Source of the DNA: Spirochaetia bacterium
GTDB lineage: Bacteria > Spirochaetota > Spirochaetia > CADAEX01
Direction: 5' to 3'
NCBI GenBank assembly: GCA_963662795.1
Contig: OY759746.1
Location: 3,616,001-3,680,000, forward strand
DNA: 64,000 bases
Shown here: in pieces, positions 1 through 18,434 of the stretch
How positions within the stretch are numbered: the first letter of the stretch is position 1
Layout of the letters: each line of letters starts with the position of its first letter
Notes under the pieces: generated by a model
Told to the model about the DNA's origin: nothing
Database searches by the model: none
The model's input: only the letters and a program-made list of their open reading frames with translations
Position numbers and translations under genes: made by a program

Positions 1-129
1 GTCATTAGAGAAATTGTAAATATAACGGCAATATTCAATCATGATATTCTAGATGGCGCACCTGCTGCGAGATTAATGAATAAACTAAGGAATATTTTGG
101 AGGTAGAATATAAAAAATTGCTTGATTAA
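1..129 (+). CDS. 3' end of a 2-oxoacid dehydrogenase E2 (acyltransferase)-like protein, 5'-truncated by the window
   Basis: Frame 1 reads VIREIVNITAIFNHDILDGAPAARLMNKLRNILEVEYKKLLD*. HDILDGAPAARL matches the DHRxxDGAxAxxF catalytic motif of E2/CAT-fold acyltransferases. Confidence 0.7.
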   Translation, partial: VIREIVNITAIFNHDILDGAPAARLMNKLRNILEVEYKKLLD

Positions 130-147
130 AAACATTAAGGAGAAATA

Positions 148-922
148 ATGAAGGTAGCAACATTTATAGGAAGTGTGCGTAAGAAAAACACTTATGATGC
201 CTGTAAAATGTTTCTCAATGAAATTACGACTTTTGGAAATGTAGAATCAGAAATGGTATATCTTGATGACTATAATTTAAAGGTATGTACTGGTTGTAAA
301 ATGTGTTTAGATAAAGGAGAAGAGTATTGTCCTCTCGAAGATGACAGGAACACACTTATTAGAAAAATGATTGAATCAGATGGAGTAATTTTTGCTTCCC
401 CAAATTATTGCTTTAATGTATCAGCCTTAATGAAATTGTTCTTAGACCGGCTTGCATATTTCGGACATAGACCAGCATTTTTTGGTAAAACCTTTTCCAG
501 TATAATTTATAGTTGTACAGGGAATATATGGAGGCGATAAAATAGTAAAATATTTTGATTTTTTTGGAAATACAATTGGTTATAACATTGTTAAAGGGGG
601 CATTAATAAATTCTCTTGAACCAATGACAGAAAAAATTAAGGAAAGAAACGAGAAAATAATAAAAGAACATGCAAAAAATTATTATAGACAGCTGGTGAA
701 AAATGAATTTAAAAAATCAAGTTTGATAGAATTGCTTATTTTCAGAATGTCCAGAACAAGTATAAAAACGATACTTGATAAGAGTTACAGAGATTATGAG
801 TATTATAATAGAAATGGCTGGTTTGAATCGGATTTTTATTATCGGTAAAGATTAGCAAGATTAAAAAATCACTTGGAAAAGTGTTTGATAATATATCAGT
901 AACAATTTCTAAAAATCGATAA
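148..922 (+). pseudogene. Flavodoxin-family iron-sulfur flavoprotein (NADPH-dependent FMN reductase fold), frameshifted
   Basis: GSVRKKNT, CTGCKMC...C Fe-S motif and ASPNY. The reading continues in other frames (VVQGIYGGDKIVKYFDFFG; ALINSLEP...; VKISKIKKSLGKVFD...), with shifts near 505, 598 and 843. Confidence 0.7.
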
Positions 923-1242
923 TGATAAGTATGAAAACGAAGGACTCTGCCTTGGCGTTGCCAGGTGAGGCTCGACACCCCTCAGCTCGATAATATACCC
1001 CTCCATGAAAGTGATAAAAACTGCTTCCACGCGCAAGAAAACAGGTTTAGAATTACGATATTAAAAATCTTACTGCTGGGTATTCACATCAATAGAATCA
1101 CCGGGACCTCATGCAGACACGGATGAGAAATACATGATCTTTTAAAATAATATCCTTTTTTAGTAAATATAAATAAAATATTTGAAATATATGGTTTCGC
1201 ATAATAAAATTCAAACTATCAACTATTGATAAGGAGTTAAAA

Positions 1243-1458
1243 ATGCCAGATTGCGAATGCCTGCCAAAGTGTCCGTTTTTCAATGACCGAATGCAGAACA
1301 TGCCAGGATTGTCAGCTGTATACAAGAAAAGATACTGTAAAACCGATTCCTCAAAGTGTGCCAGATATATTGTCTTTAAAAAATTGGGAAGATATGAAGT
1401 TCCTTCAAATTTATTTCCAAATCAAATTGAAATTGCTCAATCGTTAATATATAAATAA
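1243..1458 (+). CDS. Small Cys-rich hypothetical protein (71 aa)
   Basis: Strong SD (AAGGAG) upstream of the ATG; CxCxxxCPFF...YC...CARY pattern. Confidence 0.7.
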   Translation: MPDCECLPKCPFFNDRMQNMPGLSAVYKKRYCKTDSSKCARYIVFKKLGRYEVPSNLFPNQIEIAQSLIYK

Positions 1459-1773
1459 TATTGAACACAATTATAATAAAGTACGATTTTTAAAAGTATT
1501 TCAGTATATATATCATCAGTTAAAAAGTTATTTATACTGGCTAAATGTATGGATTCAACTCTGTCTCTAATTATACTAATTATAATTGAAACGCCAAATT
1601 ATACAGGTAGAGCAACTACCTGACAATTGCTATTCAAATATCCCATCTTTTGTACAGGACTATAAATTCTTCAAATATTCCTGGCATCTTGTTGAAAATG
1701 TGAAACCTTAAAGGATACGGGAGCTTCTGTGATGCCCTAATGATCGCTTTTTTATTAGTTTCTATTATTATAA

Positions 1774-1956
1774 TTATAAAAACTGATCAAGTTTTTCCTG
1801 GGTAATCAATCCAAGCTTAACACCAATTTGACCAAACAATAAATCAGAATGATCTTTTTGATAATCTAAAATCTTTTTTACATCTTGATCTGTTATAGCT
1901 CCGAGTCTTACTAATAACTCCCCAAAACGCTCTGTAGAATCATTCATTTTATACAT
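1774..1956 (-). CDS. Stand-alone MshEN-like (putative c-di-GMP-binding) mini-protein
   Basis: RFGELLVRLGAITDQDVKKILDYQ, a short linker, then LFGQIGVKLGLITQEKLDQFL. This resembles the tandem RLGxxLxxxGxIxxxxLxxxLxxQ motif. Confidence 0.65.
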   Translation of the reverse strand: MYKMNDSTERFGELLVRLGAITDQDVKKILDYQKDHSDLLFGQIGVKLGLITQEKLDQFL

Positions 1957-2310
1957 AGTCCTTTTAAATTAATTTATGCCTAAAATATTTATAATTCAAA
2001 TTATAATCATATAATCTTTCATAATTTTACTGAGTTTATCATTACTCATATCATTGATATATTTATTTGATATCATCTCGGCTATCAGGTCCTTTATCCT
2101 TTTCATCCGTATTTTCATCCACCCCTCCACTGCCCCATCTTTCATCTGTTCAAGAAAATCATTTTCCCCATACCCGGGTGTATGTATGATTAATGTTATT
2201 TCTTTTCTAAACAGTAGATTAATGGTTACAATATTTTAAAAATTTTAGTTACACTTAATCCTTTATTGCTTTAATCAAAAATATCTTAAAAATGTATTTT
2301 ATTTGATTAA

Positions 2311-4092
2311 TTGATAATTCTGTGGTTAAATATAATTACACTATCAAAAGAAATGACTGATACAAATGGTATTTTAAACAATAAATTACATGACTTCCGC
2401 AAGCTTTCACTCGAATTAATCAGTCTTGCAGATAAAGGTACTTTAATATCAGAATATTTAAGAAATGCTTCTCAAAAAATTATAAATTTATCAAAAGCAT
2501 CTAAACTTAACATTATAGTAAGCGACATCAGTAACTATTACAGATTCACTCTTGATAATCAGGATCAATGGGGTATTTTTCCTTTATCACGTAATGTAAT
2601 TGACTCTGTTCAATTGTCAAATAAGGAAAATGTAATTACTACTTCTGATCTTGAGAAAACTGTTTTTACCAATATAATAATCAGCTCTCCTGATTTTACT
2701 GAAGCAAACGGTCTTTATATCAAGGATACATCAAAAATACTATTATTGGTAATTAAAAATGATAACAACGAAAATGGAATATCTGTTAAAATAAAAACGA
2801 ATTATTCTTCAATTTTAATATTACCAATTCGTAATGATAACGAAATTATTGGCGTCATTTCATTAGAATGGTCAAAAATTATAAATTTATTAGATGAAGA
2901 TATATCTTTTTTTCAATATATTTTTGATATTGTTGGTTCTGCCAGGTCGCATAGACAGGCAAAATTCCATCTTGGAGAAAGAATAAAAGAACTCACTACT
3001 ATATATCAAATTACACGTTTAGGAGCAGAAATAAACAAATCCCTTGACGATGTGCTATCTGGAGCTGTGGATATAATCCCCCCAGGGTTTTTAAGACCTG
3101 AATTAGCCTGCTGTAAAATATTATATTCAAACGAAGTGTTTAAAAGTAAAAATTATCAAATCCCCAAACATACTTTGAAGGAAGATATTATTGTTGGGGG
3201 GAAAAACATTGGATTTATCGAAGTTGGATACACTGAAGAGCCAAACAACCTGGACAAAGGACCATTTTTAAAAGAAGAACAACCTATGCTCATGACAGTT
3301 GCCAGAGAATTAAGTCTTATCGCAGAAAGAAAACAGTTTGTTGATGAAAGAGAACGTCTTCAACAACAACTACTTCATGCAGACAGATTGGTCACTGTTG
3401 GCCAATTAACAGCTGGAGTTGCGCATGAACTGAATGAACCCCTGGGAGGTATACTTGGCTTTGCGCAGCTGATTAAAAAATATGGTGATATTAATAAAGA
3501 TGTGGAAAAAGATATTGATAAAATAATCAAGGCTTCCCTACACGCTCGTGAAATTATACGTAAACTTATGCTATTTAGCAGGCAAACACCTCCTGAGAAA
3601 AAACTTTTTAATATTAATGAACGAATTAACGATGGTTTATATTTATTGGAAAGTAGAATTAATAAAAGTAATATAAACCTCATCAAGGATTTTTCAAATG
3701 ACTTACCCGATATAAAAATTGATCCTTCCCAAATAAATCAGGTACTTGTAAATCTTGTTGTAAATGCCATTCAGGCAATGCCTGATGGTGGAACTCTTAC
3801 AATAAAAACCGATAAATTAATAAATAATATTGTTTTAACTGTTAAAGATACCGGAATCGGAATGACCCTTGATCAAATTGATAAAATATTTATTCCATTT
3901 TTCACTACAAAGGACATCAATGAAGGAACTGGTTTAGGATTACCAGTTGCTTTGGGTATAGTTCAATCTCATGGCGGAACAATCAGTGTTAATAGTTTCC
4001 CTGGAAAAGGTTCAGAGTTTGTTGTAAAATTTCCGATAGACACAGAAAATAATTTGAATGAAGGAATATCGAATGACAAGCAAGAAAAGTAA
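2311..4092 (+). CDS. Cytoplasmic GAF-domain sensor histidine kinase (start may be ATG 2353)
   Basis: H-box AGVAHELNEPL, N-box QVLVNLVVNAIQAM, G boxes DTGIG and GTGLGL; GAF-like N-terminus with no obvious TM helix. Confidence 0.9.
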   Translation: MIILWLNIITLSKEMTDTNGILNNKLHDFRKLSLELISLADKGTLISEYLRNASQKIINLSKASKLNIIVSDISNYYRFTLDNQDQWGIFPLSRNVIDSVQLSNKENVITTSDLEKTVFTNIIISSPDFTEANGLYIKDTSKILLLVIKNDNNENGISVKIKTNYSSILILPIRNDNEIIGVISLEWSKIINLLDEDISFFQYIFDIVGSARSHRQAKFHLGERIKELTTIYQITRLGAEINKSLDDVLSGAVDIIPPGFLRPELACCKILYSNEVFKSKNYQIPKHTLKEDIIVGGKNIGFIEVGYTEEPNNLDKGPFLKEEQPMLMTVARELSLIAERKQFVDERERLQQQLLHADRLVTVGQLTAGVAHELNEPLGGILGFAQLIKKYGDINKDVEKDIDKIIKASLHAREIIRKLMLFSRQTPPEKKLFNINERINDGLYLLESRINKSNINLIKDFSNDLPDIKIDPSQINQVLVNLVVNAIQAMPDGGTLTIKTDKLINNIVLTVKDTGIGMTLDQIDKIFIPFFTTKDINEGTGLGLPVALGIVQSHGGTISVNSFPGKGSEFVVKFPIDTENNLNEGISNDKQEK

Positions 4093-5422
4093 ATCGGAAA
4101 TAATATTAGTAGTTGATGATTCTCCGGATACTCTTGAAATGCTGCATCGCAGCATTGAATATATGGGATATAAAGTCTTTTCCTGTGATAGTGCACAAGA
4201 AGCTATCGATATATTAAAAAATACACATATTGATCTTGTTATTACTGATTATCATATGCCCTTTATCGGTGGAATCAATGTAATTAGGCATGTTCGCGAA
4301 AATTATAAAAATACTGAGGTAATGATGATAACTGGCTATGCTTCTGTTGAGGGTGCAGTAGAGGCAATAAAAGCCGGAGCTGAAGAATATCTGGCTAAAC
4401 CATTTACGGATGAAGAACTTGAACAGGCTATAGAGCGCTCCCTCGCTAAACTTGCAATCAGAGCAGTACGAAATGCCATACCGACAAAGAATATCTCAAA
4501 ACAATACTCAATTATTGCAGAATCAGTTAAAATGCAAAAAGTCTTTGATAGTATTAGAAGAGCTGCATCAGGAAACTTACCAGTTCTTATTTCGGGTGAA
4601 AATGGAACTGGAAGACAACTGATAGCAAAAGCAATTCATTTTGAAAGTGCAAATTCAACATATCCCTTTATTCATGTTAATATCAGAGGTATACCGGAAA
4701 GTAATCTTGAAAGTCAGTTATTCGGACATATCAAAACCGGGGATAATATATCAGATAAAATATCTCAAAAAGGTTTACTGGAATTGGCAGAAGAAGGAAC
4801 AGTTTTTTTCGATGGAATCAGTTTAGCACCACCGGCAACACAAATTAAACTTTTAAGGGCATTATCAAGTAATGAAATTACATATACAGGAGACAATACA
4901 GCCAGAAAGATAAAATGCAGAATTATAGCTTCAACTTCAAAAGATTTACTTTCTCTTGTCAGAAAAGGACTATTCCGGGAAGATCTTTTTTTCCGAATTA
5001 ATGTTGTTAATATTACCCTCCCACCGTTGAGAGAAAGAGGTAAAGATATTTTACTTCTGGCAAATCATTTCATTACCGAAGTCTGCAATGAAATCGGTAG
5101 GAATAAAATACCTATAATTAATGAAGGAGCTTCTCGCTGTCTAATGAACTACTATTGGTCGGGAAATATAAGGGAGCTTGAAATCCTTATCCGCCAAATT
5201 ATCCAAAAAATACATGGAGATATTATTGAAATTTCAGATTTACCATCATATATGCGATATAATCTTTCAGAAGAAACAAGGTTAAGCAAATCGCTTCTGG
5301 AAGTAGAAAAGGACCATATAAAAGATGTATTGCTGAAAGTTGATGGAAATAAAACAAAGGCAGCTGAACTTCTTGGAATTGATAGAAAAACTTTACGGGA
5401 AAAACTCACAAAACAGACATGA
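4073..5422 (+). CDS. NtrC-family response regulator (REC-AAA+-Fis HTH) with a degenerate AAA+ domain
   Basis: REC motifs VVDD, ITDYHMP, KPF; AAA+ FREDLFFRINV and WSGNIRELE; HTH GNKTKAAELLGIDRKTL. GAFTGA is absent and Walker A/B are altered. Overlaps the kinase stop. Confidence 0.9.
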   Translation: MTSKKSKSEIILVVDDSPDTLEMLHRSIEYMGYKVFSCDSAQEAIDILKNTHIDLVITDYHMPFIGGINVIRHVRENYKNTEVMMITGYASVEGAVEAIKAGAEEYLAKPFTDEELEQAIERSLAKLAIRAVRNAIPTKNISKQYSIIAESVKMQKVFDSIRRAASGNLPVLISGENGTGRQLIAKAIHFESANSTYPFIHVNIRGIPESNLESQLFGHIKTGDNISDKISQKGLLELAEEGTVFFDGISLAPPATQIKLLRALSSNEITYTGDNTARKIKCRIIASTSKDLLSLVRKGLFREDLFFRINVVNITLPPLRERGKDILLLANHFITEVCNEIGRNKIPIINEGASRCLMNYYWSGNIRELEILIRQIIQKIHGDIIEISDLPSYMRYNLSEETRLSKSLLEVEKDHIKDVLLKVDGNKTKAAELLGIDRKTLREKLTKQT

Positions 5423-5485
5423 TGTTAAATAGTATTCATTTGATTCAAAAATATTGATTAAAACTTACTTAGTCCTTAAAAACAT

Positions 5486-5515
5486 TCAAGGCAGTCATAT
5501 TTCAGACTGCCTTGA
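5486..5515. terminator. Hairpin between the convergent regulator and gdhA, probable terminator
   Basis: 11-bp stem TCAAGGCAGTC-N8-GACTGCCTTGA. Confidence 0.65.
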
Positions 5516-5527
5516 CATCAATCTTTA

Positions 5528-6889
5528 TTATACAATTCCATAAGCCAGCATTGCTTTTGCTACTTTAAGAAAACCAGCAATATTAGCACCAGCCATATAA
5601 TTTCTTTCATTAAAACCATACGCTGATGAAGCATGGCGACAGGAATCATGTATATTCTTCATTATTATTCGAAGTCTGTGATCAACTTCTTCTTTTTCCC
5701 ATAGAAGCTTCATACTGTTCTGACTCATCTCTAATCCAGAAACAGATACACCACCTGCATTAGCAGCCTTACCAGGTGCATACAGTATATTATGATCAAT
5801 GAAAATATTTATTGCTTTAGGAGTTGATGGCATATTAGCACCTTCAGATACACAATTGCATCCATTTTTTATAAGGGCAAGAGCATTTTCCTCGTCAATT
5901 TCATTTTGAGTTGCACATGGCAAAGCAATGTCAACTTTTAATGATTGTTCTTTTATAATATCCCAAACAGCTTTTCCCTCATAATATACCGCATCTGGAA
6001 AATGTTCCGCATATTCCTTTATACGTCCTCTCCTGTTATTTTTCAGATCCATTACAAAGTCCAGTTTTACTTTGTTTATTCCGTGAGTATCTATGATGGT
6101 TCCTGTACTGTCAGATAGAGAAATTACCTTACCTTTCAATTGATTAATTTTTTCAACTGAATACTGGGCAACATTTCCAGATCCCGATATAGCTACAACC
6201 TTATCATCAATAGTTTCATGATCTGTTGCCAGCATTTCTGCCGCGAAATAAACAGCCCCATATCCTGTAGCTTCAGGTCTTATAAGACTTCCTCCAAATT
6301 CCATACCCTTTCCAGTAAGAACACCTGTATGCTCATTTCGTAATTTTTTATAATAACCATAAAGATAACCAATCTCTCTACCACCAACACCAATATCCCC
6401 GGCTGGTACATCCGTATCAGGACCAATATGTCGATATAATTCTCTCATGAACGCCTGACAAAATCTCATTACTTCAGCATCACTTTTTCCTTTAGGATCA
6501 AAATCGCTACCACCTTTCCCTCCCCCCATTGGAAGAGTTGTTAGTGAATTTTTAAATATTTGTTCAAACCCTAAAAATTTTATTATACTCAAGTTAACAG
6601 ATGGGTGAAACCTGAGCCCTCCTTTATAAGGACCAATTGCATTATTGAATTGAATCCTAAACCCGCGGTTAACGCGTACATTTCCAGAATCATCAACCCA
6701 TGGGACTCTGAACATAATTTGTCGATCAGGTTCAACAATTCTTTCATAAATTGCTGCTTCAACAAACTCCGGATGCTTTTCAACAGTTGGTTCAAGTGAA
6801 AGCATTACTTCTTCGACAGCCTGTATAAATTCAGGTTGAGACGGGTTTTTTACTTCAGTTTTTTCGATTACTTCTTTTAAGTAGCTCAT
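5528..6889 (-). CDS. gdhA: NADP-specific glutamate dehydrogenase
   Basis: GPYKGGLRFHPSV, MGGGKGGSDFDPKG, DVPAGDIGVG, RPEATGYG, GSGNVA and EGANMP motifs. Confidence 0.97.
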   Translation of the reverse strand: MSYLKEVIEKTEVKNPSQPEFIQAVEEVMLSLEPTVEKHPEFVEAAIYERIVEPDRQIMFRVPWVDDSGNVRVNRGFRIQFNNAIGPYKGGLRFHPSVNLSIIKFLGFEQIFKNSLTTLPMGGGKGGSDFDPKGKSDAEVMRFCQAFMRELYRHIGPDTDVPAGDIGVGGREIGYLYGYYKKLRNEHTGVLTGKGMEFGGSLIRPEATGYGAVYFAAEMLATDHETIDDKVVAISGSGNVAQYSVEKINQLKGKVISLSDSTGTIIDTHGINKVKLDFVMDLKNNRRGRIKEYAEHFPDAVYYEGKAVWDIIKEQSLKVDIALPCATQNEIDEENALALIKNGCNCVSEGANMPSTPKAINIFIDHNILYAPGKAANAGGVSVSGLEMSQNSMKLLWEKEEVDHRLRIIMKNIHDSCRHASSAYGFNERNYMAGANIAGFLKVAKAMLAYGIV

Positions 6890-7119
6890 TGGAAACTCCT
6901 TTTATTGTTCTTTGGCAGTCACCTTTTAGCAAATACTCGCAAGTGGGGATTATATGACCGTTTTTTGGTGATTTATTCACCATTTATGTTATTTTCTATC
7001 ATATAATAATTATATGTCAAGTAATATTTTATATTCTTTATAAATAAATCAGTTATTTATCATTTTAATATGTTTGAAAACTGAATATTTAAATAATAAA
7101 ATTATGGGAAAGGTGTCGT

Positions 7120-10107
7120 ATGAATGATTTAAAACATTATTGGCTTTTTAAACCCCAAAAATCTAATCTTTCAATATTTCATGATCTAATGCGGTTTAAA
7201 GTTAAAGAAATACTTCTTGTTGCTACGGTATATGATGCCTATATTCTTGAGCGCGAGGGACAGTTATTTGAACAAATTTATGGAGAATATTATCAATTAA
7301 ATATATCAAGTGCCCCAAGGATTACTTCTGTATTTTCAGATATTGATGCACTTGAAATCATAGAAATAGAACAATTCGATCTGGTTATAATTGTTACAGG
7401 AATTGATAAAAATATGCCTCTCGTACTAAGTCAAAAAATAAAGGAAGCAACTCCGGATATACCAATACTACTCTTAATAAATAATAATAACCAAATAATA
7501 TTATACGAAAAAATGGCAAAAGACCTGATTAATTTTGAAAAACTGTTTGTCTGGAACGGTGACAGCAATATCTTTCTTGCAATGATAAAATACATTGAGG
7601 ACTCTATAAATGCACAACAAGATACGTTATCAGGTGATGTCAGAATTATTCTTTTAGTTGAAGATTCTATACGCTATTATTCAAGATATCTTCCAACTCT
7701 TTATAGCGTAATAATGAGGGAAGTACAAAGATTAATCAGTGGTGAGGATATCGATGCGCGATATAAGCTTCTTAAAATGAGAGCCCGTCCAAAAGTTCTT
7801 CTCACCTCAAGTTATGAAAATGCAGTCGAATTATTTGAAAAATACAAAGATTATCTGCTATGTATAATAACTGATGTAAAATACTATATGAATGGGAAAA
7901 TCAATGTTTCAGCTGGAAAATATCTTGTTAAATATGTTCAAAGCAGAGTTAATATTCCGATTCTTTTACAATCATCTGATCCAGTAAATAATAATTTCGC
8001 TAAAGAAAATAAAATTAACTATATTGATAAAAATTCTCAAAATTTATCGAAAGAATTAATTGATTTTTTTAAACAAAATCTTGGATTTGGCAATTTTATT
8101 TTCAGGGATAGCAATGGGAAGAACATTGCCGAAGCAAGATATCTAAAAGAATTCGAATCACTAATTGATAAAATACCAGGTGAATCCATTATTTATCATA
8201 GTAATAGAAATGATTTTTCAACCTGGTTTATGGCAAAAGGAGAGATTAAAAGTGCATTGAAATTGAAAAAAGCGAAAACCGAAGATTTTAATGGACCAGA
8301 AGAAATAAGAAATTTTATAAAAAACACATTGTTTGAACGCTGGCTTGAGAAAAAAAGAGATTCAATATCGAATTTTTCTGAACCAGTGTTAGATGAAACT
8401 TCATACCTCATGAGAATTTCAAATGGCTCTGTAGGAGGAAAAGGAAGAGGTATTGCCTTTACAGAATCACTTCTCCAAAAATCTGAATTTAAAAATATTA
8501 TTAATGGGATAAATATCACCATACCAAAGACTATTATAATCGGTACGGATGAATTTGAATATTTTATGGATAATATTGATATCAGTAATTTAATGCAGAA
8601 TGAAGAGAATATTTTAAAGATAAAGGAACTTTTTTCTAAAATTAAGCTATCCTCTCTATTATCTCAAAGATTGAAGAAAATACTTAATAATACAACTGCT
8701 CCTCTAGCAGTAAGAAGTTCTGGCCTTTTTGAAGATAGTCTTTCGCAACCATTCGCGGGTATATATGATACTTATTATCTACCTAATAATCATCCTGATC
8801 CAAATGAAAGATTACATCAACTTGAGACTGCCGTAAAAATGGTATATGCATCAGTTTTTACACCACTTGCAAAAAGCTATTTTGACTCAGTAAATCACTC
8901 TATTGAAGAAGAAAAAATGGCTGTTATCATTCAAGAACTTGTAGGTCATGCTTATGGTGAATATTTCTATCCACATCTAAGTGGCGTTGCCCAATCATAT
9001 AATTACTATCCTATTTCTCATATGAAATCAGAAGATGGTATTGGGTTAATAGCTATTGGACTAGGTAAAACCGTAGTAGATGGAGAATCTTCCTACAGGT
9101 TTTGTCCCAAATATCCAAAAATGAAAATATTTACAATTAAAGATATGCTTGAAAATTCACAAAGATATTTTTATGCTTTAAATCTTAAAAAAACCAAAAT
9201 CGATTTAATGGAAGGTGTTGATGCAACACTTGATAAAATACCAGTTTCTTTTGCTGAAAAACATGGGAATCTTGATCATTGTGCTTCAGTATATGATGTT
9301 AATTCAAATACTATCAGACCGGGACTTCATATAGAAGGTCCCAGAATTATTGATTTCAGTTATATACTTCAATATAACTATATCCCTCTTTCAAACACTA
9401 TATCAACTGTACTTGATGTTATGAGAAGTGCATTGGGTACACCAGTTGAAATCGAATTTGCCATTGATCTTAAAAAAGACAGTACGGGAAAAAGCTGTTT
9501 TTACATTCTTCAGGTCAAACCTTTGATAAGAACACTCGACACATCATTAAGTGAAGAAATACGTGTTGACAGAAATGATCTTATCCTAAGAACAAAAAAT
9601 GGAATGGGTAATGGAATTATAGAAGGCATTCATGATATTATTTATGTAATCCCCGATAGATTTAATAATCTCAAAACTGCATTTATTGCAAAAGAAATCA
9701 GTCAATTGAACAAAGAGATGAAAAGGATTTCAACAAATTATATACTAATTGGTCCTGGCCGATGGGGATCAAGTGACTCATTTCTTGGAATTCCAGTAGA
9801 TTGGGCATCTATCAGTGAAGCTAAAGTAATCGTTGAAACATCAATAAAAGATTTTCAAGTCGATGCATCACTTGGAAGTCATTTTTTTCATAATATTACA
9901 TCAATGAATATTGGATATTTTACAGTTCCTTTTGGAATTGAAGATTCATTTATTGATTATAATTTCATTGAATCAATTAAGCCTGTAAATGAAACAACAT
10001 ATTTGCGACATATTCATTTACCCACACCTGTTACTGTAATAATGGATGGAAGAAGATCTGTTTCTTTAATTACTAAAAATGGTTGGAAGTTGAAAAAATC
10101 TTTGTAG
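7120..10107 (+). CDS. Receiver-domain plus PEP-synthase/PPDK N-terminal (ATP-grasp) domain protein with a C-terminal His-swivel-like domain; no PEP/pyruvate TIM barrel
   Basis: REC-like RIILLVEDS...IITDVK...IPILLQSS; ATP-grasp GSVGGKGRG, PLAVRSSGLFEDS-FAGIYDT, EIEFA, LQVKP; C-terminal GPGRWGS and SLGSHFFHN. Confidence 0.85.
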   Translation: MNDLKHYWLFKPQKSNLSIFHDLMRFKVKEILLVATVYDAYILEREGQLFEQIYGEYYQLNISSAPRITSVFSDIDALEIIEIEQFDLVIIVTGIDKNMPLVLSQKIKEATPDIPILLLINNNNQIILYEKMAKDLINFEKLFVWNGDSNIFLAMIKYIEDSINAQQDTLSGDVRIILLVEDSIRYYSRYLPTLYSVIMREVQRLISGEDIDARYKLLKMRARPKVLLTSSYENAVELFEKYKDYLLCIITDVKYYMNGKINVSAGKYLVKYVQSRVNIPILLQSSDPVNNNFAKENKINYIDKNSQNLSKELIDFFKQNLGFGNFIFRDSNGKNIAEARYLKEFESLIDKIPGESIIYHSNRNDFSTWFMAKGEIKSALKLKKAKTEDFNGPEEIRNFIKNTLFERWLEKKRDSISNFSEPVLDETSYLMRISNGSVGGKGRGIAFTESLLQKSEFKNIINGINITIPKTIIIGTDEFEYFMDNIDISNLMQNEENILKIKELFSKIKLSSLLSQRLKKILNNTTAPLAVRSSGLFEDSLSQPFAGIYDTYYLPNNHPDPNERLHQLETAVKMVYASVFTPLAKSYFDSVNHSIEEEKMAVIIQELVGHAYGEYFYPHLSGVAQSYNYYPISHMKSEDGIGLIAIGLGKTVVDGESSYRFCPKYPKMKIFTIKDMLENSQRYFYALNLKKTKIDLMEGVDATLDKIPVSFAEKHGNLDHCASVYDVNSNTIRPGLHIEGPRIIDFSYILQYNYIPLSNTISTVLDVMRSALGTPVEIEFAIDLKKDSTGKSCFYILQVKPLIRTLDTSLSEEIRVDRNDLILRTKNGMGNGIIEGIHDIIYVIPDRFNNLKTAFIAKEISQLNKEMKRISTNYILIGPGRWGSSDSFLGIPVDWASISEAKVIVETSIKDFQVDASLGSHFFHNITSMNIGYFTVPFGIEDSFIDYNFIESIKPVNETTYLRHIHLPTPVTVIMDGRRSVSLITKNGWKLKKSL

Positions 10108-10304
10108 TGAACCTGTAAGTAAGTTTCCGAAAATCGCTTTGCCAACAAAGGAATCCTCTTCCCATATCACCGGCGCGGGTGTAGAATTACTTACTCAAGA
10201 GTATCTGCAGCTGATTCATATCTACAAAATATTTTTATTCATAATTCAGAATAGTCGAAATTGTGTGACGAATAATGGTAAGATGCTATTTGTTTATAAG
10301 ATGT

Positions 10305-11328
10305 GCACAGAAATTCCTAGCGCAAATTGGCAATAGCTTCTTTAGGTGTTATGAAGTCAAGAGTTTTTCTTGGCCTCTCATTCAATAGCCTTGCTACTCG
10401 TGATACATCATACTGCGAAAGCTTTCTGAAATCATCTACTTCATCAAGCATATCACGAATCAAGCCATTTGTGTTTTCACATGTTCCCTTTTCCCAGGGA
10501 GATGCCGGATGGCAAAAGTATACATCAATATTAAGATTTTCTTTGAGTTTTTTGAACTCACTGTTCTCTTTACCCTGATCAAGAGTCAGAGATTTTCTTA
10601 GAAGAGGAGATATCTTCTTAAACCTTTTCTCTATTGTTTTTCTTACTGTATTTGCATCATATGTTTTTAACAGATCAAGCTGGATAAACCTAGTTTTACG
10701 TTCAACTATTACGCAGATTGCTGATTTATGGTCCTTTCCAATGAGAAGATCTCCTTCCCAGTGTCCTGGAACTTTCCGTGAGTTAATTTCAGCAGGCCTT
10801 TCGTCTATAAGGGTAATATCTTTTAATTTACCCCGTTTTTCGTCCTTATTTGCACTCTTTCTTTTCTTTCCTTTGAGTCTTAAATCTTTAAGCGCTAGTT
10901 TTTTAAGCTCTCCCCTCATGTGGAAATGGACATAGTTATAAATTGTTTTATCACTCACTTTATCTGAAGGATAATTTATTTCCAGCCATTTGGCAATTTG
11001 CTGTGGGGACCACCGGAGTTGGAGTTTGGGTTTTATAAGCTGCCATGACTTGTTGTCTATTTTTAATTTGGGGCTCTGATTTTTTCTTTGCCTTAAATGC
11101 TCATACTCTGCAATTAAAGGATTGTAATATCCTTCATCAGTACCGCGTTTTATTTCTCTTGTAATACTTGAAGCTCTTCGGCCAAGATTACTTGCTATTT
11201 GTGATAGCTTTAATCTTTTGGTGTAAATCATCTGAAAAATGGCCATTCTTTCATTGAGATTCATTCTTTTGTAACTCACTTAAAACTCCTGTCACAATAT
11301 TAGTTTATTGCGCTAGGAATTTCTGGCC
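10305..11328 (-). mobile_element. IS30-family insertion sequence, apparently intact
   Basis: Perfect 18-bp inverted repeats CAGAAATTCCTAGCGCAA (10308-10325 / 11308-11325); 2-bp GT direct repeats at 10303-10304 and 11329-11330. Confidence 0.9.
10317..11279 (-). CDS. IS30-family DDE transposase
   Basis: GHWEGDL, LTLDQGKE, FCHPASPWEKGTCENTNGLIR, LNERPRKTL. Confidence 0.95.
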   Translation of the reverse strand: MSYKRMNLNERMAIFQMIYTKRLKLSQIASNLGRRASSITREIKRGTDEGYYNPLIAEYEHLRQRKNQSPKLKIDNKSWQLIKPKLQLRWSPQQIAKWLEINYPSDKVSDKTIYNYVHFHMRGELKKLALKDLRLKGKKRKSANKDEKRGKLKDITLIDERPAEINSRKVPGHWEGDLLIGKDHKSAICVIVERKTRFIQLDLLKTYDANTVRKTIEKRFKKISPLLRKSLTLDQGKENSEFKKLKENLNIDVYFCHPASPWEKGTCENTNGLIRDMLDEVDDFRKLSQYDVSRVARLLNERPRKTLDFITPKEAIANLR

Positions 11329-11429
11329 GTCAGAATTTATAAATACTAAAAGACTATTATTACTACCTGTCAATTCAGATAATATTCCATTCTTTTCCTG
11401 ATTAAATAACAATCCTAAATATTATAATA

Positions 11430-11457
11430 ATTATGAGTCCCCGTAGGGACTCATAAT
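11430..11457 (-). terminator. Probable amtB terminator hairpin
   Basis: 12-bp stem ATTATGAGTCCC-CGTA-GGGACTCATAAT, 40 nt after the amtB stop. Confidence 0.7.
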
Positions 11458-11497
11458 AAATTACAGGTTTTATTAGAGAGCTTATAATTAATCAATT

Positions 11498-12700
11498 CTA
11501 ATTATAAGCATCTTCATCGTGTATTGATTTATCAAGGCCGGCGCCTTCTTCTACTTCAGATACTCTTACCCGTACAATTAGATTTATTGCCCATAGCATT
11601 AGATATGTAAATAAAAACGCATAAACTGAAGCGATTACAACAGTTACAGTCTGTATTAGAAAAAAAGTAGTATTTCCATAAAAAAGTCCACTGTCACCGG
11701 CTGGATTGATAACTGTACTTGCAAAAACTCCAAGAAGAACAGTTCCAGTGAAACCACCAAAGCCATGAACACCCCAGACATCAAGGGCATCATCCCATTT
11801 TAATTTATTTTTTAGTGCAACAGCATAGTAACAGCCCATTCCTGCTATAATACCAATCAATGCAGCTGACCAAGTCGGAACAAAACCGGCAGCAGGCGTT
11901 ATTGTAGCCAGACCGGCTACAGCTCCTGTCATTAATCCTACAAATTTAGGTTTTTTTTCTTTATGCCATTCAATGATCAGCCAAGTAACAGTTGCAAAAG
12001 AAGCAGCAACATCAGTATTAACAAAAGCAAGTGCAGTTATATGATCGACCTGTAATTCACTTCCTGCATTAAATCCATACCAACCAAACCATAACAAGCC
12101 AGTACCGATAGCAACCAGTGGAATACTATTTGGTTTTGATTTCTTATCTTTCCGCTCTCCAACATACAAAACTGATGCCAGAGCGGCAAACCCTGCAGTA
12201 GTATGAACAACAATTCCCCCTGCGAAATCCTTAACTCCCCATGAGGCAAGTATACCACCACCCCAGATCATATGAACAAAAGGATAATATACAAACAACT
12301 GCCACAAAACGAGGAAAAACAAGTATGCCTTAAAAGATACTCTTCCCGTAAACGCACCAGTGATAAGCGCTGGAGTAATAATTGCAAACATCATCTGGTA
12401 GGCAAAAAATACAAATTCAGGAATTGAGCCTTCTCCAAATGGTGTTAGGGCATCTACTCCTTTCAGAAACATTTTATCTATGTTTCCAATTATTGGCCCG
12501 CTACCACTAAAGCATAATGAATAACCAATGGCATACCAAAGCATTGTGGTTATTCCCAAAGATACAAAACTCTGTATCATAATCCCCAGAATATTACGTT
12601 TGGATGTTAATCCACCATAAAAAAATGCTAATCCCGGGGTCATTAGCATTACCAGGCTAGTTGCTACAAGCATAAAACCTGTTGATCCAGTGTTGAACAT
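11498..12700 (-). CDS. amtB: Ammonium transporter
   Basis: MTPGLAFFYGG, DFAGGIVVH, LWFGWYGFNAGS, DDALDVWGVHG (both pore His residues). Confidence 0.96.
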   Translation of the reverse strand: MFNTGSTGFMLVATSLVMLMTPGLAFFYGGLTSKRNILGIMIQSFVSLGITTMLWYAIGYSLCFSGSGPIIGNIDKMFLKGVDALTPFGEGSIPEFVFFAYQMMFAIITPALITGAFTGRVSFKAYLFFLVLWQLFVYYPFVHMIWGGGILASWGVKDFAGGIVVHTTAGFAALASVLYVGERKDKKSKPNSIPLVAIGTGLLWFGWYGFNAGSELQVDHITALAFVNTDVAASFATVTWLIIEWHKEKKPKFVGLMTGAVAGLATITPAAGFVPTWSAALIGIIAGMGCYYAVALKNKLKWDDALDVWGVHGFGGFTGTVLLGVFASTVINPAGDSGLFYGNTTFFLIQTVTVVIASVYAFLFTYLMLWAINLIVRVRVSEVEEGAGLDKSIHDEDAYN

Positions 12701-13082
12701 AAAGTTCCCTCCTTAAATTGACTCAGAAAATCACATGGATCTTTTTTTATCATACGGTATGCGGGAGATAAAAAAATCAGATTTATGCTTTTATTGCAAT
12801 TTGAATTTATTAGCTCATTAATCTATTGTATACTTTGACTCAATTAATGTATTTATAAAATCATTTATTGAAAATATCAGAATAAACCCTATCAAAAAGA
12901 AATCCTATTGATTTTCTGAGTGTTTTTAAAATCACAGTTTGCATACTTTGGCTTGTGATTTTAAACACTTCAATATAACCAACGAATTATTTTAAATCTG
13001 TTTAATATGACCGTCAAGCTAATAAATATATTTTTTCTTTACTTAAGTATTTTTGACTGTACCCTGTAATTTCCCATCAAGG

Positions 13083-14077
13083 TGGGATTACCCCAAAACA
13101 GTAGACACTTGATATACTTAGAAACTAAGGAGTATTAAAGTGCCAAAGAGTCCCTGCACAGAAGAATTTAAAGACGAAATATTGAAGCAAATAAAGAAAG
13201 AAGGACACAGTGTTCTTGAAGTATCAAAAGCAGCAGGAGTAAGTGACGTTACTCTTTATACCTGGCTTAGAAAGGCAGGATGGAAATCTGGTGAGTTCAG
13301 GGATAAGAGGAAATTAATAGAAACAGAAAAAAAATAGAGAATTAAAAGCAGAGATTCGAAAGCTGAAAATGGAGCGTGATATCTTAAAAAAAGCCGCAGC
13401 GTACTTTGCGAAAGAATCCCGGTAAAGTACGCTTTCATTGGGATAACAGGAAAGTGTTTCCAATCCCGCCCTATGTGCAGGATATTTAAAATTAATCCAT
13501 CGGGATTTTACAGATGGTTAAAAACACCAGAATCTCCCAGAATAAAAGAAAATAAAAAACTGACAGAACTAATACGTTTTTATTGGAAAGATAGCGGTCA
13601 AGTATATGGAAGTCCAAATATACATGAAGATCTAAAAGAAGCCGGTTATACCTGTAGTGTTAACAGGGTTGCTCGTTTAATGAAAGAAGCTGGAATAAAA
13701 GGTGCTTACAGGCGGAAACGACATCAAGTTCAATGGGTACCTGGAGAAGTTTATCAAGAAAATACTTTAAGATAGAAAGTTTGCTGTTGATAAACCGAAT
13801 CAAGCCTGGTGTACAGACATCACATATATCCGAACCTATGAAGGCTGGCTTTATCTGGCAGTAGTAATTGATCTATTCAACAGGGGTGTTGTTGGCTGGT
13901 CGATGAAAAGCCATCAGAAAGCAATTATTGTTATGGATACTTTATTTATGGCTGTAAAAAGAAGAAGACCTACAAAGTCTGTTCTTATCCATTCTGATCA
14001 GGGATGCCAATTTACCAGTAAGGATTGGGAAAATTTCTGCGAATCCCATTCTTTAGAAATTAGTATGAGTCGCGAAG
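13083..14077 (+). mobile_element. IS3-family element, degenerate and 3'-truncated
   Basis: Left end TGGGATTACCCC; orfA 13140-13337 broken at an A-run; A7G slippery site near 13386; orfB (YGSP, NRVARLM, WCTDITY, HSDQGCQF) disrupted near 13773 and cut off at the second IS before the last catalytic Glu. Confidence 0.85.
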
Positions 14078-15356
14078 TATAATGAGCCCGGAAATCAAGA
14101 CACAAAAAACGGTATGATTAAGGTGTAAAACCCGCTATACTTTAAGGAGCGGAAAACACAATGAATAAACGACAGAGATTTGACAAGGCATTCAAGGCAA
14201 AAGTAACACAGGATGCTCTTCGCGAGGAACTTACAATTCAGGAAATTGCAAAAAAGTACAACGTTCATCCTAACCAGATCAGCTTATGGAAAAACCAGGC
14301 AATAGAAAGCTTGCCGGAGATTTTTGAAAGACCAAATAAAAAAAGTGAAACAGAGCGAGAAGCCGAGGAAAAATACGATGATGCACTCAAAACGCTTGGC
14401 AAGATGAAGATCGAAAACGAATTTCTAAAAAAAAGTACAAACAACTTTACGGGAGCGATCCCTTCTGATTGAAAGGGCACATGAAAAAATGAGTGTGAAA
14501 AATCAATGTAAAGCTCTCGGCCTGTCAAGGAGTGCAGCTTATTACAGAAAACGATGCTCTCTTGTAGAGAGAGATATTGAGATACTGAAAAAGATAAGAG
14601 AAGTTCTTATCCTCTTGCCTTTTTATGGTTATAGAAAAGTTGCTCTTGAAATTAGAAGCAAAGACTCCTGTGTTTCTCGCGAACAGGTGCGCAGGATAAT
14701 GACAAAAGCAGGACTCAAAGCGATATTCCCTGGAAGGAATATGTCAAAAGCAAGGCATGAACACAAAAAGTATCCATATCTGCTTGCAGGAAAGATTATA
14801 AGATATCCGAATCAGGTTTGGGCGACTGATCTTACATATATCAAAATGCCAAAAGGTCATGTATATCTCATGGCGATTATCGATCTGTATTCAAGAAAGG
14901 TACTTAACTGGATAGTAACTAATACACTTGATGCACAGATATTCGCCAACTGCTTACATGAAACAATTGAAAAGTATGGAGCGCCTGCAATTTTTAATAC
15001 GGATCAGGGATGTCAGTTTACTTCTGAATGCTGGACTGCCGTTCTCCATGAATATGGCATAAGAATAAGCATGGACGGGAAAAATCGCGCAATAGATAAT
15101 ATCTTTGTTGAAAGACTTTGGCGGTCACTTAAGTATGAAGATATTTATATCAAGCGCTATGAGACAGTCCGGGATCTCAAAGAAGGAGTCGCACAATACT
15201 TCAAGTTTTATAACACTGAGCGTTTTCATCAGAATCTCTCTTACAGGACTCCTGATGAAATACATGAATCATTTCAGGCTGTCAGCCTGGCAGAACAGGC
15301 GGCGTGATACACCTTAAACACTCGTCAAAAGTGTGTTGACATAAGGGCGCAGTTTA
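14078..15356 (+). mobile_element. IS3-family element, apparently intact
   Basis: Imperfect terminal IRs TATAATGAGCCC...GACAC and TAAACTGCGCCC...AACAC (reverse complement); orfA/orfB arrangement; no flanking direct repeat. Confidence 0.88.
14161..15307 (+). CDS. IS3 transposase OrfAB, joined by a programmed -1 frameshift (orfA 14161-14472, orfB to 15307)
   Basis: HTH orfA; A8G slippery site 14427-14435; DDE motifs WATDLTY, NTDQGCQF, DNIFVERLWRSLKYE. Confidence 0.9.
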
Positions 15357-15357
15357 A

Positions 15358-15510
15358 ACAGCTGCATCAAGTCATAATCAGATTTTTTCAATTGATACAT
15401 TTAATGCATATGTCCATAATAAAGATTTATCTCCTATATCAACTGATCTAAAAATAACCTGGGATAATTTACAAAATGCTATTATTAATTTATGGATTTT
15501 AATTAAATGA
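15358..15510 (+). pseudogene. C-terminal remnant of a HEPN-like protein coupled to the methylase; 5' part deleted at the IS3 end
   Basis: Open frame TAASSHNQIFSIDTFNAYVHNKDLSPISTDLKITWDNLQNAIINLWILIK*. Its TGA overlaps the methylase ATG (ATGA). Not in the ORF track. Confidence 0.55.
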
Positions 15511-16349
15511 AATACTACTCACCTCTTAGATATCCAGGGGGGAAAGGTAAACTTTTTCCATATATCAAGAATTTATTTGAAAAAAATAATCTTTATAAAA
15601 CTATTTATGTTGAACCTTTTGCTGGTGGTTCATCTTTGGCATTATCGTTATTAATGGAAGAATATACTCCAGAAGTTTATATAAATGATATTGATTTTCA
15701 TATTTATGCATTTTGGTATAACGTAGTTCATGAACCCGATAAATTAATAAAGAATATTTTAAATTGCAAAATAAATATAGAAACATGGTTAAAAGAAAAA
15801 AATATATACTCAAACTATAAGAAACACTCAATAATTGATGTAGGATTTGCTACTTTTTTTTTAAACAGAACAAATCGATCAGGAATTCTAAATGGAGGCA
15901 TTATTGGTGGTAAAAATCAAAATAGTAAATGGAATATTGCAGCTCGCTTTAATAAAAAAGATTTAATTAACCGAATCGAAAGGATAGCTTTATATAGTGA
16001 TCGTATCAATGTTTCCAATTATGATGCATTGCATTTATTCGATCTTGTAGAAAAAAAACAAGATAAATATTTTTATTTTATTGATCCACCGTATTTTATA
16101 AATGGCAAAGATTTGTATTTAAATTTCTACAAAAAAGACGATCATGAGTTATTATGTAAAAAAATATTTACCTTGAATAATAAATGGATTGTAACATATG
16201 ATAATGTACCTGAAATAAATAATATTTATCGTAAATGCAAAAATAAAATTGAATATTCTTTGAACTATAGCGCAAATACAAACAGGAAAGGTAAAGAATT
16301 AATGTTTTTTTCGCCAAAAATGTTAATACCAGATTTTGAATTATTTTAA
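15507..16349 (+). CDS. DNA N6-adenine methyltransferase, Dam/D12 class
   Basis: SPLRYPGGK, EPFAGG SAM-binding motif, FLNRTNRSG, DPPY catalytic motif. Confidence 0.93.
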   Translation: MKYYSPLRYPGGKGKLFPYIKNLFEKNNLYKTIYVEPFAGGSSLALSLLMEEYTPEVYINDIDFHIYAFWYNVVHEPDKLIKNILNCKINIETWLKEKNIYSNYKKHSIIDVGFATFFLNRTNRSGILNGGIIGGKNQNSKWNIAARFNKKDLINRIERIALYSDRINVSNYDALHLFDLVEKKQDKYFYFIDPPYFINGKDLYLNFYKKDDHELLCKKIFTLNNKWIVTYDNVPEINNIYRKCKNKIEYSLNYSANTNRKGKELMFFSPKMLIPDFELF

Positions 16350-16372
16350 CAGAAAAGCTTTTTCAACTATTC

Positions 16373-16808
16373 TTATCGATTAAAATATTTATGTTCTCTT
16401 TCTTTTCTTTTACTTCTTGTCCCATAAATAAAAGCACCCGCAATACCTGCAATACCTGTAATTATTGTAGTAAGGCCCTGCGCACTTTTACCAGTATAAA
16501 TTAAAAAAGTTCCACAAATTATTGCAGTTAAAACTATCAATACAGCACAAAATTGACCGCGAGAAGAATTTTTAATTTCACCAACTATGGCCATTTTTTC
16601 GATTTCCTGACGATGATCACTTTGTGCTTCTGCCATCTTTAATATCCTATCGTGCTGCACCTGGTAATATATCTTCATATTTTCCGAATTCGGCTGATGG
16701 AGGTAAAGGACCTTGATATTGCATACTTACATTTCGCTGTGATGTGTTTTGCATTCTTTCCAATTTAATTGTTCTATCAATTTGTTTTTGAATCTTATTT
16801 TTTGGCAT
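16373..16808 (-). pseudogene. DUF2335-like membrane protein with a 1-bp frameshift
   Basis: The upstream frame MPKNKIQ...YQGPLPPSAEFGKYEDILPGAA joins DRILKMAEAQSDHRQEIE plus two TM helices if one base near 16653 is removed. Confidence 0.75.
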
Positions 16809-17005
16809 TAAGCTTTAGAAAATTCTTTAAAAGCCTTCTCTATATCATTACCTATAGCTTTAAAATCATTCTCAATTGCAATTCTATCAGCAATTTCCGG
16901 TGATATACTATAATTTCTTTCTATCAAAGTAGCACCTATGTCAAATACAGATGCTATTCCACTTAAATAACTTGGCATTGAGAATAAAAAATCTGTATTC
17001 CCCAT
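16808..17005 (-). CDS. Small hypothetical protein coupled to the DUF2335-like gene
   Basis: SD AAGGGG; PSYLSGIASVFD...DRIAIENDFKAIGNDI; stop overlaps the next start (TAATG). Confidence 0.7.
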   Translation of the reverse strand: MGNTDFLFSMPSYLSGIASVFDIGATLIERNYSISPEIADRIAIENDFKAIGNDIEKAFKEFSKA

Positions 17006-17144
17006 TTATTTACCCCTTAAATAGTTCTAATATAAATATAATCCTCTGAATATTATTGTCAAGAGATTACGATTAAACAGTATATCTTAATAATCGGTTC
17101 AATTAAACACTTAAAGAACATTTTTACAAGGGATATTTTAATTT

Positions 17145-18272
17145 TTACCCTGTTTTCACGAATTCAAGCACATTACTCTTCCCGCTGTAAATCTCATCAA
17201 TCTTGTCAGCAACAACTAAAAGATTCTCCGGGTTAATATGAGTATAAAGCGCCTGTGTATCCCTGTTTTTATCTGTTCAGCCCAGATATTTCTTGACATA
17301 GAGTTCCGGACTGCCGGCAAGCAGGAGATTTGTATTAAGGGAGTGCCGGAAGCTGTGAGGAGAGATATTTCGACCGTCAATATCAATCTCGAAAGCGGCC
17401 ATGGAGCGCCTGAAATTATTCCTCCACCAAGTCTCCCCTGTCCGCCGGGTGTTATCATGGAATATATACCTGAAGGACCCTTTCTCCGGAAGATTTAATA
17501 AAACAGATGCAGCAAGAGGAATTTCAACCGACATCCCCCATTTAACGTCTCCGGAGCATTTTTCCGACTTCTTCCAGGCACGGTCGATATTGCAGTATTT
17601 TCCCTCAATCTGTTCCCATTCGAGAGCGAGGATCTCCGATGCGCGTCGGACGGTAAAGGCTGCAAAACGGAAAAGCTGATATGCAATACGTGACGGCCAT
17701 TTATCCGGATCCGAAAACAGGTGTAAAATCTCTTCAGAAAAGAAAAATCCTCGTTCTTTGGCATTATATTTTATATCACTGATATGTGTCGCCGGATTAT
17801 TCTTAATATCTCCTCGGTAATGTGCTTCAGAAAAAATTGAAGAAACAGCTTTTATAACTTTATTTACAGTATTATGTTTTCCAGCATTTTTTGAAATAAG
17901 AATGTCGCGCAGATCAATAATATCTCCCCTGGTTATTTCCCCCATGCTAAAATCAGCAAATTTCTCCGGATAGACATATTTTTTAATCAATCTGGCAAGA
18001 TCTTCACAATAACGCAGTCCATATTTTTTACCTTCTGCAGAATATCTTTTTCGCCTGGGATTTGTTTCATATACCAGATATTGCGCTGAATATGCCTTGA
18101 AATTGATTATAGAACACTTTGTAAGAGAATTTATAAATTCAATAATAAAATCATTTGCTTTACCTTTTTTTGAAGTTCCGCATGATTTCTTTCTTCTTTT
18201 ACCAGAAGCTGGATCTACATAATAAAAGAATAAGTTTGAAGAGCCTTCTCGACAGATTGGTCTGGGATACAT
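17145..18272 (-). pseudogene. Tyrosine integrase with an in-frame nonsense codon
   Basis: RRASEIL and HSFRHS motifs. YLG-TGA at 17277-17279 is followed in frame by TDKNRDTQALYTH... (catalytic Tyr) to TAA at 17145. Confidence 0.88.
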
Positions 18273-18333
18273 TTAAAATTCCTTGATACCACTTTGATAC
18301 CAGTCCAACTCCCATGACCATTATATAAAAAAA

Positions 18334-18358: not shown

Positions 18359-18359
18359 G

Positions 18360-18434
<75 letters not shown>

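Follow-up and report, generated by a model that had tools for sequence, protein, structure and literature searches.

Histidine autophosphorylation by dikinase chemistry has been described for rifampin phosphotransferase (RPH; accessible text of PMC4844700). In Mycobacterium tuberculosis, VadK (Rv1127c) is a PPDK that lacks the pyruvate domain; it is reported to autophosphorylate at His422, to bind enzymes of the methylcitrate cycle whose genes lie nearby, and to alter flux while the transcription of these genes stays the same (accessible text of PMC13400623). According to a genomic survey, the nitrogen-control system of Escherichia coli is missing from many rumen bacteria, which rely on glutamate dehydrogenase (GDH), and the survey cites similar reports for Bacteroidetes (accessible text of PMC13196213). 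Here we analyze a locus of a Spirochaetia bacterium in which gdhA lies divergent from the gene for a 995-residue PPDK_N protein, referred to below as DIK. The window, that is, the whole stretch of DNA that was analyzed, comprises 64 kb of a 3.93-Mb contig, and all negative results for the window are limited to those 64 kb. An initial annotation of this DNA had proposed a nitrogen-control module of five genes, namely a histidine kinase, a response regulator, gdhA, DIK and amtB. The conserved core is smaller and consists of gdhA and DIK. We propose, with a probability of about 0.45, that DIK is a PPDK-derived regulatory kinase that works like VadK under receiver control and acts on GDH post-translationally. 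A literature search, whose coverage excluded most subscription papers, found no study of the DIK family or of its link to gdh.

The DIK gene occupies positions 7120–10107 on the plus strand. Pfam covers only residues 437–807 of its product (PF01326, E 3.6e-35), and the remainder of the chain was assigned from a structure model built from 70 relatives (predicted local distance difference test score, pLDDT, of 81), from a separate model of the C-terminal domain folded from 96 sequences (pLDDT 93), and from residue conservation in 150 representatives with identities down to 32%, the aligned rows serving as denominators. The model divides DIK into a pseudo-receiver (residues 27–164), a receiver (175–323), a helical domain (approximately 330–413), an ATP-grasp domain (418–807) and a swivel domain (812–990). 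The ATP-grasp residues are K441 (conserved in 149/150), R532 (150/150), T551, E779 (146/147), Q798, which is also conserved, and K800; K441 and E779 presumably match known residues of PPDK and phosphoenolpyruvate (PEP) synthase, judging by their motifs. Both N-terminal domains are modeled as receiver folds, with Z scores of 14.4 for the first and 14.5 for the second. The second is canonical, with E181 in 133/140 representatives, D182 in 120/140, D252 in 130/142, S285 in 135/144 and K304 in 139/144, and in a second count D252 is kept in 90 of 92 relatives. The first is devoid of phosphorylation residues, having no Asp at positions 92–94 and W/N at 145–146. Outside the known sites, H21, H360 and an RWG stretch at 881–883 are conserved.

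The C-terminal domain, encoded at 9553–10089 (plus strand), is a putative divergent phosphohistidine swivel that is missed by Pfam. Among 48,161 chains, six of the seven best matches to its model are swivel domains, coming from the pyruvate kinase C-terminal domain, two PPDK entries, RPH and two Enzyme I entries (best Z 6.9, root-mean-square deviation 3.1–3.9, 110–120 residues aligned). The candidate catalytic residue, His921 (codon 9880–9882), is kept in 137 of the 141 aligned representatives and in all 97 locus proteins. Residues 418–990 of the full model align with residues 4–467 of PEP synthase 2ols (Z 25.5, root-mean-square deviation 4.9, 362 residues aligned), and further structural matches are RPH (Z 25.7), HpeI (Z 18.4) and 1dik. 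By sequence, the whole of DIK gave one match among solved structures, at E 0.22, and atlas searches returned the DIK family itself and nothing else. No pyruvate/PEP barrel was found in the DIK model or by Pfam. The swivel domain follows directly on the ATP-grasp domain, with no room for a substrate domain between residues 807 and 812, the chain ends five residues past the swivel domain, and among the clustered loci no recurrent neighbor gene was seen that would supply the barrel. We also considered DIK as a PEP synthase and rejected this because of the missing barrel; its NCBIfam score is 41 versus 598 bits, and databases misleadingly call it “PEP synthase” or “PEP/pyruvate-binding domain protein”. 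The family is large, with at least 4,570 clusters among 8,000 scored candidates, and a threshold of E 1e-30 retains at least 1,034 representatives.

The association with gdh was assessed in the best 80 of 608 confirmed stretches in GTDB genomes (numbered as L loci below), a biased sample in which 66 loci are from Bacteroidota, some contigs are short, and no DIK is more than 51% identical to the one studied here. A gdh gene lies in the fetched DNA, within 10 kb of DIK, at 36 of the 80 loci, within 2 kb at 32, and divergent within 2 kb at 24; it is present at 30 of the 59 loci that extend at least 3 kb on both sides. The rough chance expectation, assuming two gdh genes per 4 Mb, is 0.2% per locus. 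The linkage is far above chance, and the pairing of gdhA with DIK in the initial annotation has thus held up. The gdh-linked loci span Bacteroidota, Cloacimonadota, Spirochaetota-labeled and unclassified genomes, and in a tree of 109 DIKs they fall into several clades, one clade of 17 having none. In a plasmid collection, two of three matches carry the same divergent pair (Parabacteroides distasonis and Phocaeicola massiliensis), in both cases with a second gdh approximately 4 kb beyond it. The other neighbors were taken from a clustering of 1,104 of 2,780 open reading frames (ORFs), in which overlapping shorter ORFs were dropped and two gdh genes were thereby lost. They include a LuxR-type regulator (16/80 loci), GltD/SudA-like Fe-S flavoproteins (14/80), NuoF-like (11/80) and NuoE-like (10/80) proteins, 2-oxoacid:ferredoxin oxidoreductase (8/80) and SerC (5/80), and a metallophosphoesterase lies inside the DIK/gdh cluster in L047 and L058.

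Profile matches in Pfam and NCBIfam, by which the ORFs were named, agree with the initial annotation on the five genes and an IS30 element, all of them at the positions first given. The gdhA gene (5528–6889, minus strand) encodes a family I GDH that scores as NADP-specific in NCBIfam (742 bits against a cut-off of 536). The cytoplasmic histidine kinase (2311–4092, plus strand, with an ATG at 2353 that may be the true start) consists of a weak GAF-like region, a domain at residues 223–331, a HisKA domain with H372, and a HATPase domain. Its description as a GAF kinase is borne out as regards the kinase; the GAF match stays below the Pfam cut-off (21.2 versus 28.6 bits), and the informative input is the non-Pfam domain. 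This putative sensory domain of 110 residues (2977–3303, plus strand, delimited by a domain profile) is common to the kinase and to DIK relatives. It is fused to the DIK N-terminus at 47 of the 80 loci, in one to four tandem copies, and in most Bacteroidales loci, whereas in the window it resides on the separate kinase. Among the non-DIK ORFs of the 80 loci, it is limited to the kinases of L074 and L075 and one ORF of L047. The DIKs of the window, L074 and L075 do not carry the domain, and in all three cases the neighboring kinase does. The order in L074 (Cloacimonas) is DIK-DIK-gdh-kinase-regulator, and in L075 the kinase/regulator pair is divergent from DIK-DIK-gdh; the two kinases are 47% and 45% identical to that of the window. 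A kinase/regulator pair in L072 (32% and 36% identity), which does not have the shared domain, was not counted as orthologous.

The response regulator (4058–5422, plus strand; database start 4073, giving 449 residues) has the NtrC architecture of receiver (D64), AAA+ and Fis-type helix-turn-helix domains. It runs toward gdhA, and the two genes meet at an 11-pair hairpin (5486–5515) that is terminator-like on the minus strand, in keeping with the convergence first described. The GAFTGA loop is indeed absent, being replaced by a variable loop. Among the 120 best matches of the regulator, GAFTGA is absent in 53, present in 63 and replaced by near-variants in four, and in a quickly built tree limited to the first 70 matches one long branch (SH-like approximate likelihood ratio test, 100) parts the GAFTGA-less rows from 17 that keep it. 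Pseudogene decay was considered as the cause of the loss and rejected, because the loss is clade-wide. Within this clade, 37 of the 53 members keep both Walker motifs; the window copy has lost both, with the Walker A Lys replaced by Arg (R186) and the Walker B Glu by Gly (G253), which may reflect recent decay. The regulators of L074 and L075 keep the GAFTGA loop and both Walker motifs. Neither window protein reaches the cut-off of its Ntr family in NCBIfam (kinase 110.6 versus 240 bits for NtrB; regulator 318.7 versus 558.6 bits for NtrC), and the best profiles, AtoS and AtoC, are below cut-off too. The receivers of the regulator and of DIK match each other at E 0.30. The 120-row match lists of DIK and regulator have nine presumed shared contigs apart from that of the window, matched on size and six of them 15–88 kb long, and among close relatives the two proteins diverge in step. 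The inclusion of the kinase/regulator pair in the conserved neighborhood is therefore borne out weakly, by L074 and L075 and, indirectly, by these nine close relatives.

The 230-bp gap between gdhA and DIK (6890–7119) is present as first reported. It contains two sigma70-like sites, at 7020–6991 (minus strand) and 7074–7102 (plus strand), the promoter scan having found five such sites against 8.6 expected by chance. A crude scan for the sigma54 (−24/−12) consensus found none in positions 1–13,500, and the same scan found none that was clear at L074 or L075 either, though their regulators keep the GAFTGA loop. An identical 10-mer, with only two copies in the window, occurs in the gap (6952–6961) and upstream of amt (13005–13014), and is, post hoc, a possible operator; it was not found at L074 or L075. 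A search of positions 1–20,000 against Rfam found only tRNA.

Some further features of the DIK loci are recorded here. Tandem DIK paralogues occur in L001, L012, L013, L017, L020, L041, L045, L046, L050, L074 and L078; the second copies of the Bacteroidota loci group in a clade of their own, and two gdh genes often flank the pair. In L047 (8196–9918) and L058 (15785–22943) the shared sensor domain is fused to a Pol-beta-type nucleotidyltransferase, once in a 283-residue ORF and once inside a 1,629-residue double-PPDK_N protein, with a metallophosphoesterase and gdh nearby; these fusions resemble modification enzymes of the GlnD/GlnE type. Prolixibacteraceae-type loci (L044, L053, L056, L063, L076) combine DIK with serC, DUF1015, gcvT and a stand-alone Hpt-like protein and are without gdh. 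Atypical LuxR regulators (for example, L061:12948–13601 and L023:8657–9316) lie directly beside sensor-fused DIKs and are possible partners of the DIK pseudo-receiver.

Sequence and models show that DIK retains the active site of the ATP-grasp domain and the swivel histidine but has none of the acceptor-binding domains of PPDK, PEP synthase or RPH. In the mechanism that we propose, DIK would autophosphorylate His921 from ATP, as suggested by dikinase chemistry, and phospho-DIK would then bind or phosphorylate GDH or some other enzyme acting at the glutamate/2-oxoglutarate node, tuning its activity after translation, as gene order and the example of VadK suggest. This activity may be gated by receiver residue D252 and the 110-residue sensory domain. 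In the window, the kinase would feed two outputs, D252 of DIK for enzyme control and D64 of the regulator, and the sigma54-independent regulator would control the divergent gdhA and DIK promoters, either as a repressor or as a sigma70 activator; amt and the insertion sequence (IS) elements would be later, local additions. The two sources of histidine-bound phosphate envisaged in the initial annotation are matched by two candidates, H372 of the kinase and H921 in the predicted swivel fold. Its several receiver domains come down to two that are phosphorylatable (regulator D64 and DIK D252), one of the two receiver folds of DIK being degenerate. A predicted complex of GDH residues 19–452 with DIK residues 24–412 and 812–988 scored 0.00 in two runs, with the controls not folded, and weighs neither way.

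Several observations speak against control of GDH by DIK. No gdh was found in the fetched DNA of 44 of the 80 loci, the whole clade of 17 DIKs included, and GDH therefore cannot be shown to be a universal target. The Z score of 6.9 for the swivel domain is middling and lies below the tool's caution level of 8, Foldseek with the C-terminal model gave no match at E <0.001, and a profile of the C-terminal sequence retrieved only unrelated solved structures (E ≥0.047); for these reasons the swivel assignment rests on the consistency of the matches, the position of the domain and its conservation. The kinase/regulator pair adjoins DIK and gdh at two of the 80 loci, and with no locus above 51% identity to this DIK, linkage among close relatives rests on contig-size matches. 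The count for the shared domain covers the ORFs of the DIK loci. Finally, for VadK itself, phosphate transfer to a target is not reported in the accessible text (PMC13400623).

Some of the same evidence could be read differently. DIK might be a phosphorelay transmitter that passes phosphate from ATP via His921 to an Asp, either D252 in the same chain or D64 in the regulator, in place of a classical histidine kinase and with a transcriptional output. The frequent fusion of a kinase-type input domain to DIK would suit such a role, as would the retention of D252 as the sole evident acceptor on the chain and the LuxR-type regulators, all 16 of which adjoin a sensor-fused DIK. However, these LuxR partners are atypical (the Asp is present in three of 16, the Lys in eight, and both in none), which makes them poor acceptors of phosphate on Asp, regulated enzymes such as PleD, to judge by structural matches, likewise carry tandem receivers in front of the enzyme domain, and the window has a normal histidine kinase. 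We regard a transmitter as unlikely. The odds are no better for DIK being a regulated dikinase that acts on a small molecule and yields a phosphorylated metabolite or a signal, its substrate site lying in the helical domain or on a partner, as in RPH, HpeHI and PigC-type enzymes: the best structural matches of DIK are indeed dikinases of this kind, and H21, H360 and the RWG stretch could form a substrate pocket, but no known substrate-binding domain is present, ATP-grasp and swivel adjoin directly, and apart from GDH no partner enzyme occurs in more than 16 of the 80 loci. Slightly less doubtful, and compatible with control of GDH by DIK, is that the unit controls the breakdown of glutamate to 2-oxoglutarate and the redox balance, including disposal of NAD(P)H, and not ammonium assimilation. 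The redox and 2-oxoacid enzymes among the DIK neighbors point in this direction, as does the finding that none of the 80 loci has a PII gene. On the other hand, the GDH scores as NADP-specific, which would usually indicate an assimilatory enzyme, and the two gdh genes that often flank tandem DIKs (L012, L017, L020, L047) fit either direction.

The least probable reading, very unlikely in our view, is that of the initial annotation, in which all five genes including amt make up a single nitrogen-control module that replaces PII/Ntr and was transferred as part of an island. Both amt and gdhA handle ammonium, and the 10-mer common to their upstream regions counts in its favor: a shared 10-mer containing four or more G+C arose in 28 of 2000 shuffles. 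The test is, however, post hoc, and without the G+C filter a shared 10-mer arose in 1184 of 2000. The amt gene (11498–12700, minus strand) encodes an Amt ammonium transporter (TIGR00836, 412.7 bits against a cut-off of 343.3) that keeps its C-terminal tail, a point against replacement of PII. It is convergent on DIK and lies between an IS30-family element (10300–11333, minus strand, ends uncertain by a few bases; transposase 10317–11279; perfect 18-bp inverted repeat cores at 10308–10325 and 11308–11325) and a degraded IS3. An amt gene occurs near DIK at one of the 80 loci, approximately 6 kb away and not far above chance, and the best-match list of Amt has no presumed shared contigs, other than the window's own, with those of DIK or the regulator, a comparison that more distant amt genes would escape. 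The named close relatives of the protein are from Cloacimonadota, Bacteroidota and Methanosarcina. We conclude that amt, lying between two IS elements, is probably a local passenger outside the conserved unit, and amtB is accordingly dropped from the proposed module.

The observation that no glnK adjoins amt holds in the window, where Pfam, applied to 15 + 36 longer ORFs and to another 73 of 70–135 residues, found no PII gene, and tblastn with two PII proteins, which find each other at approximately 1e-17, gave no hit better than E 1.5. Since the contig is 3.93 Mb long, this negative is limited to the window. As a feature of the circuit the absence of PII is not supported: two of four amt loci in the plasmid collection, the closest (59%) among them, also have no adjoining glnK. 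As for the island, an integrase (17277–18272) lies beside tRNA-Val (18362–18434), 4.6 kb beyond amt, the G+C content is 33.2% to the left of the tRNA and 36.5% to the right, and the G+C content at third codon positions is low in the module (0.19–0.26), overlapping the low end of the flanking genes (0.24–0.27 for ilvD, an aminotransferase and a U32 gene). No stretch of at least 11 bases from around the tRNA recurs in the window as a candidate attachment site, though one could lie to the left of base 1, and the parallel divergence of DIK and regulator in close relatives also speaks against cargo. What remains of the non-canonical circuit first proposed is a phospho-signaling unit of non-Ntr type tied to GDH, without amtB, the absence of PII or transport on an island.

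Elsewhere in the window, positions 13060–18434 hold a degraded IS3, a second IS3-type element, a Dam-like methyltransferase, a DUF2335 protein and the integrase by tRNA-Val, and look like an island remnant. Divergent from the kinase gene, a 60-residue ORF (1774–1956, minus strand) encodes a stand-alone protein with an MshE-type cyclic di-GMP-binding motif (NF053729, 41.9 bits against a cut-off of 38). A 71-residue cysteine-rich ORF (1243–1458, plus strand) has no Pfam or NCBIfam match. At 148–848 (plus strand), an NADPH-dependent FMN reductase match on a 130-residue ORF is followed by a 97-residue ORF, as if split by a frameshift, and at 38435–43130 (minus strand) there are two rhodaneses, a pyridine nucleotide-disulfide oxidoreductase, TusA and two sulfur-transport (YeeE-type) ORFs.

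For anaerobes that rely on GDH, DIK, which adjoins gdhA in gut Bacteroidales, is a concrete candidate for its control, with H921, D252 and K441 as named residues, and may be the missing control switch for nitrogen and glutamate metabolism in many of them. If so, what was found in 2026 for VadK, a single mycobacterial protein, would extend to a receiver-gated family that is widespread. A bolder and rather improbable idea is that DIK founds a class of phosphorelays with a PPDK-type transmitter (sensor to His921 to Asp to GDH or a transcription factor), acting as the nitrogen/glutamate regulator of Ntr-lacking anaerobes and possibly identical with a GDH factor of Bacteroides thetaiotaomicron. A 1996 paper by Baggio and Morrison reportedly concerns a trans-acting factor that affects GDH activity in that species; the connection with DIK is tentative, and the usual place of DIK is upstream of gdhA and not downstream.

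The relation of this locus to known systems can be summarized as follows. As in PPDK and PEP synthase, the DIK ATP-grasp domain is followed by a swivel histidine domain (aligned to 2ols and 1dik), whereas the C-terminal pyruvate/PEP barrel of those enzymes is absent. In PleD, one active and one degenerate receiver precede a catalytic output. By its structural matches, DIK similarly places tandem receivers, one of them degenerate, ahead of a catalytic module, but its output is a dikinase module in place of GGDEF, and the order of the active and degenerate receivers is reversed. The kinase and the NtrC-architecture regulator near ammonium-handling genes recall NtrB/NtrC-PII-AmtB, from which the locus differs in its sub-cut-off scores, in having no GAFTGA and no sigma54 site, and in having no PII in the window. 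Regulators without GAFTGA are already known, and the window regulator is, by its sequence, of that kind: the accessible text of the VpsR paper names five other atypical enhancer-binding proteins with altered GAFTGA that are sigma54-independent (PMC6158489), and VpsR, NtrX, HupR, TyrR, PhhR and HsfA share with it the receiver-AAA+-helix-turn-helix plan without GAFTGA, in some cases with broken Walker motifs (same text). In contrast to these, it represents a separate loss, in a 53-member clade with a GAFTGA-keeping sister group, and is linked to gdhA and DIK. DIK resembles RPH, HpeHI and PigC-type dikinases in having an ATP-grasp domain and a C-terminal histidine swivel, and its R532 and T551 lie in a stretch aligned with the ATP site of RPH and are 19 residues apart, as are R117 and T136 in RPH (alignment E 0.22; accessible text of PMC4844700), but it has no substrate domain between ATP-grasp and histidine and has N-terminal receivers instead. 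The closest parallel is VadK, which, like DIK, combines a PPDK-derived ATP-grasp domain and a catalytic histidine without a pyruvate/PEP domain and is encoded near the metabolic enzymes that are its proposed targets. VadK is a protein of approximately 50 kDa for which the accessible text of PMC13400623 does not mention the word “receiver”, whereas DIK has in addition two receiver folds and a helical domain, in many cases with one to four sensor domains as well, lies next to gdh and occurs mainly in Bacteroidota. The likeness is one of domain layout and gene setting, and by this analogy DIK plausibly works like VadK.

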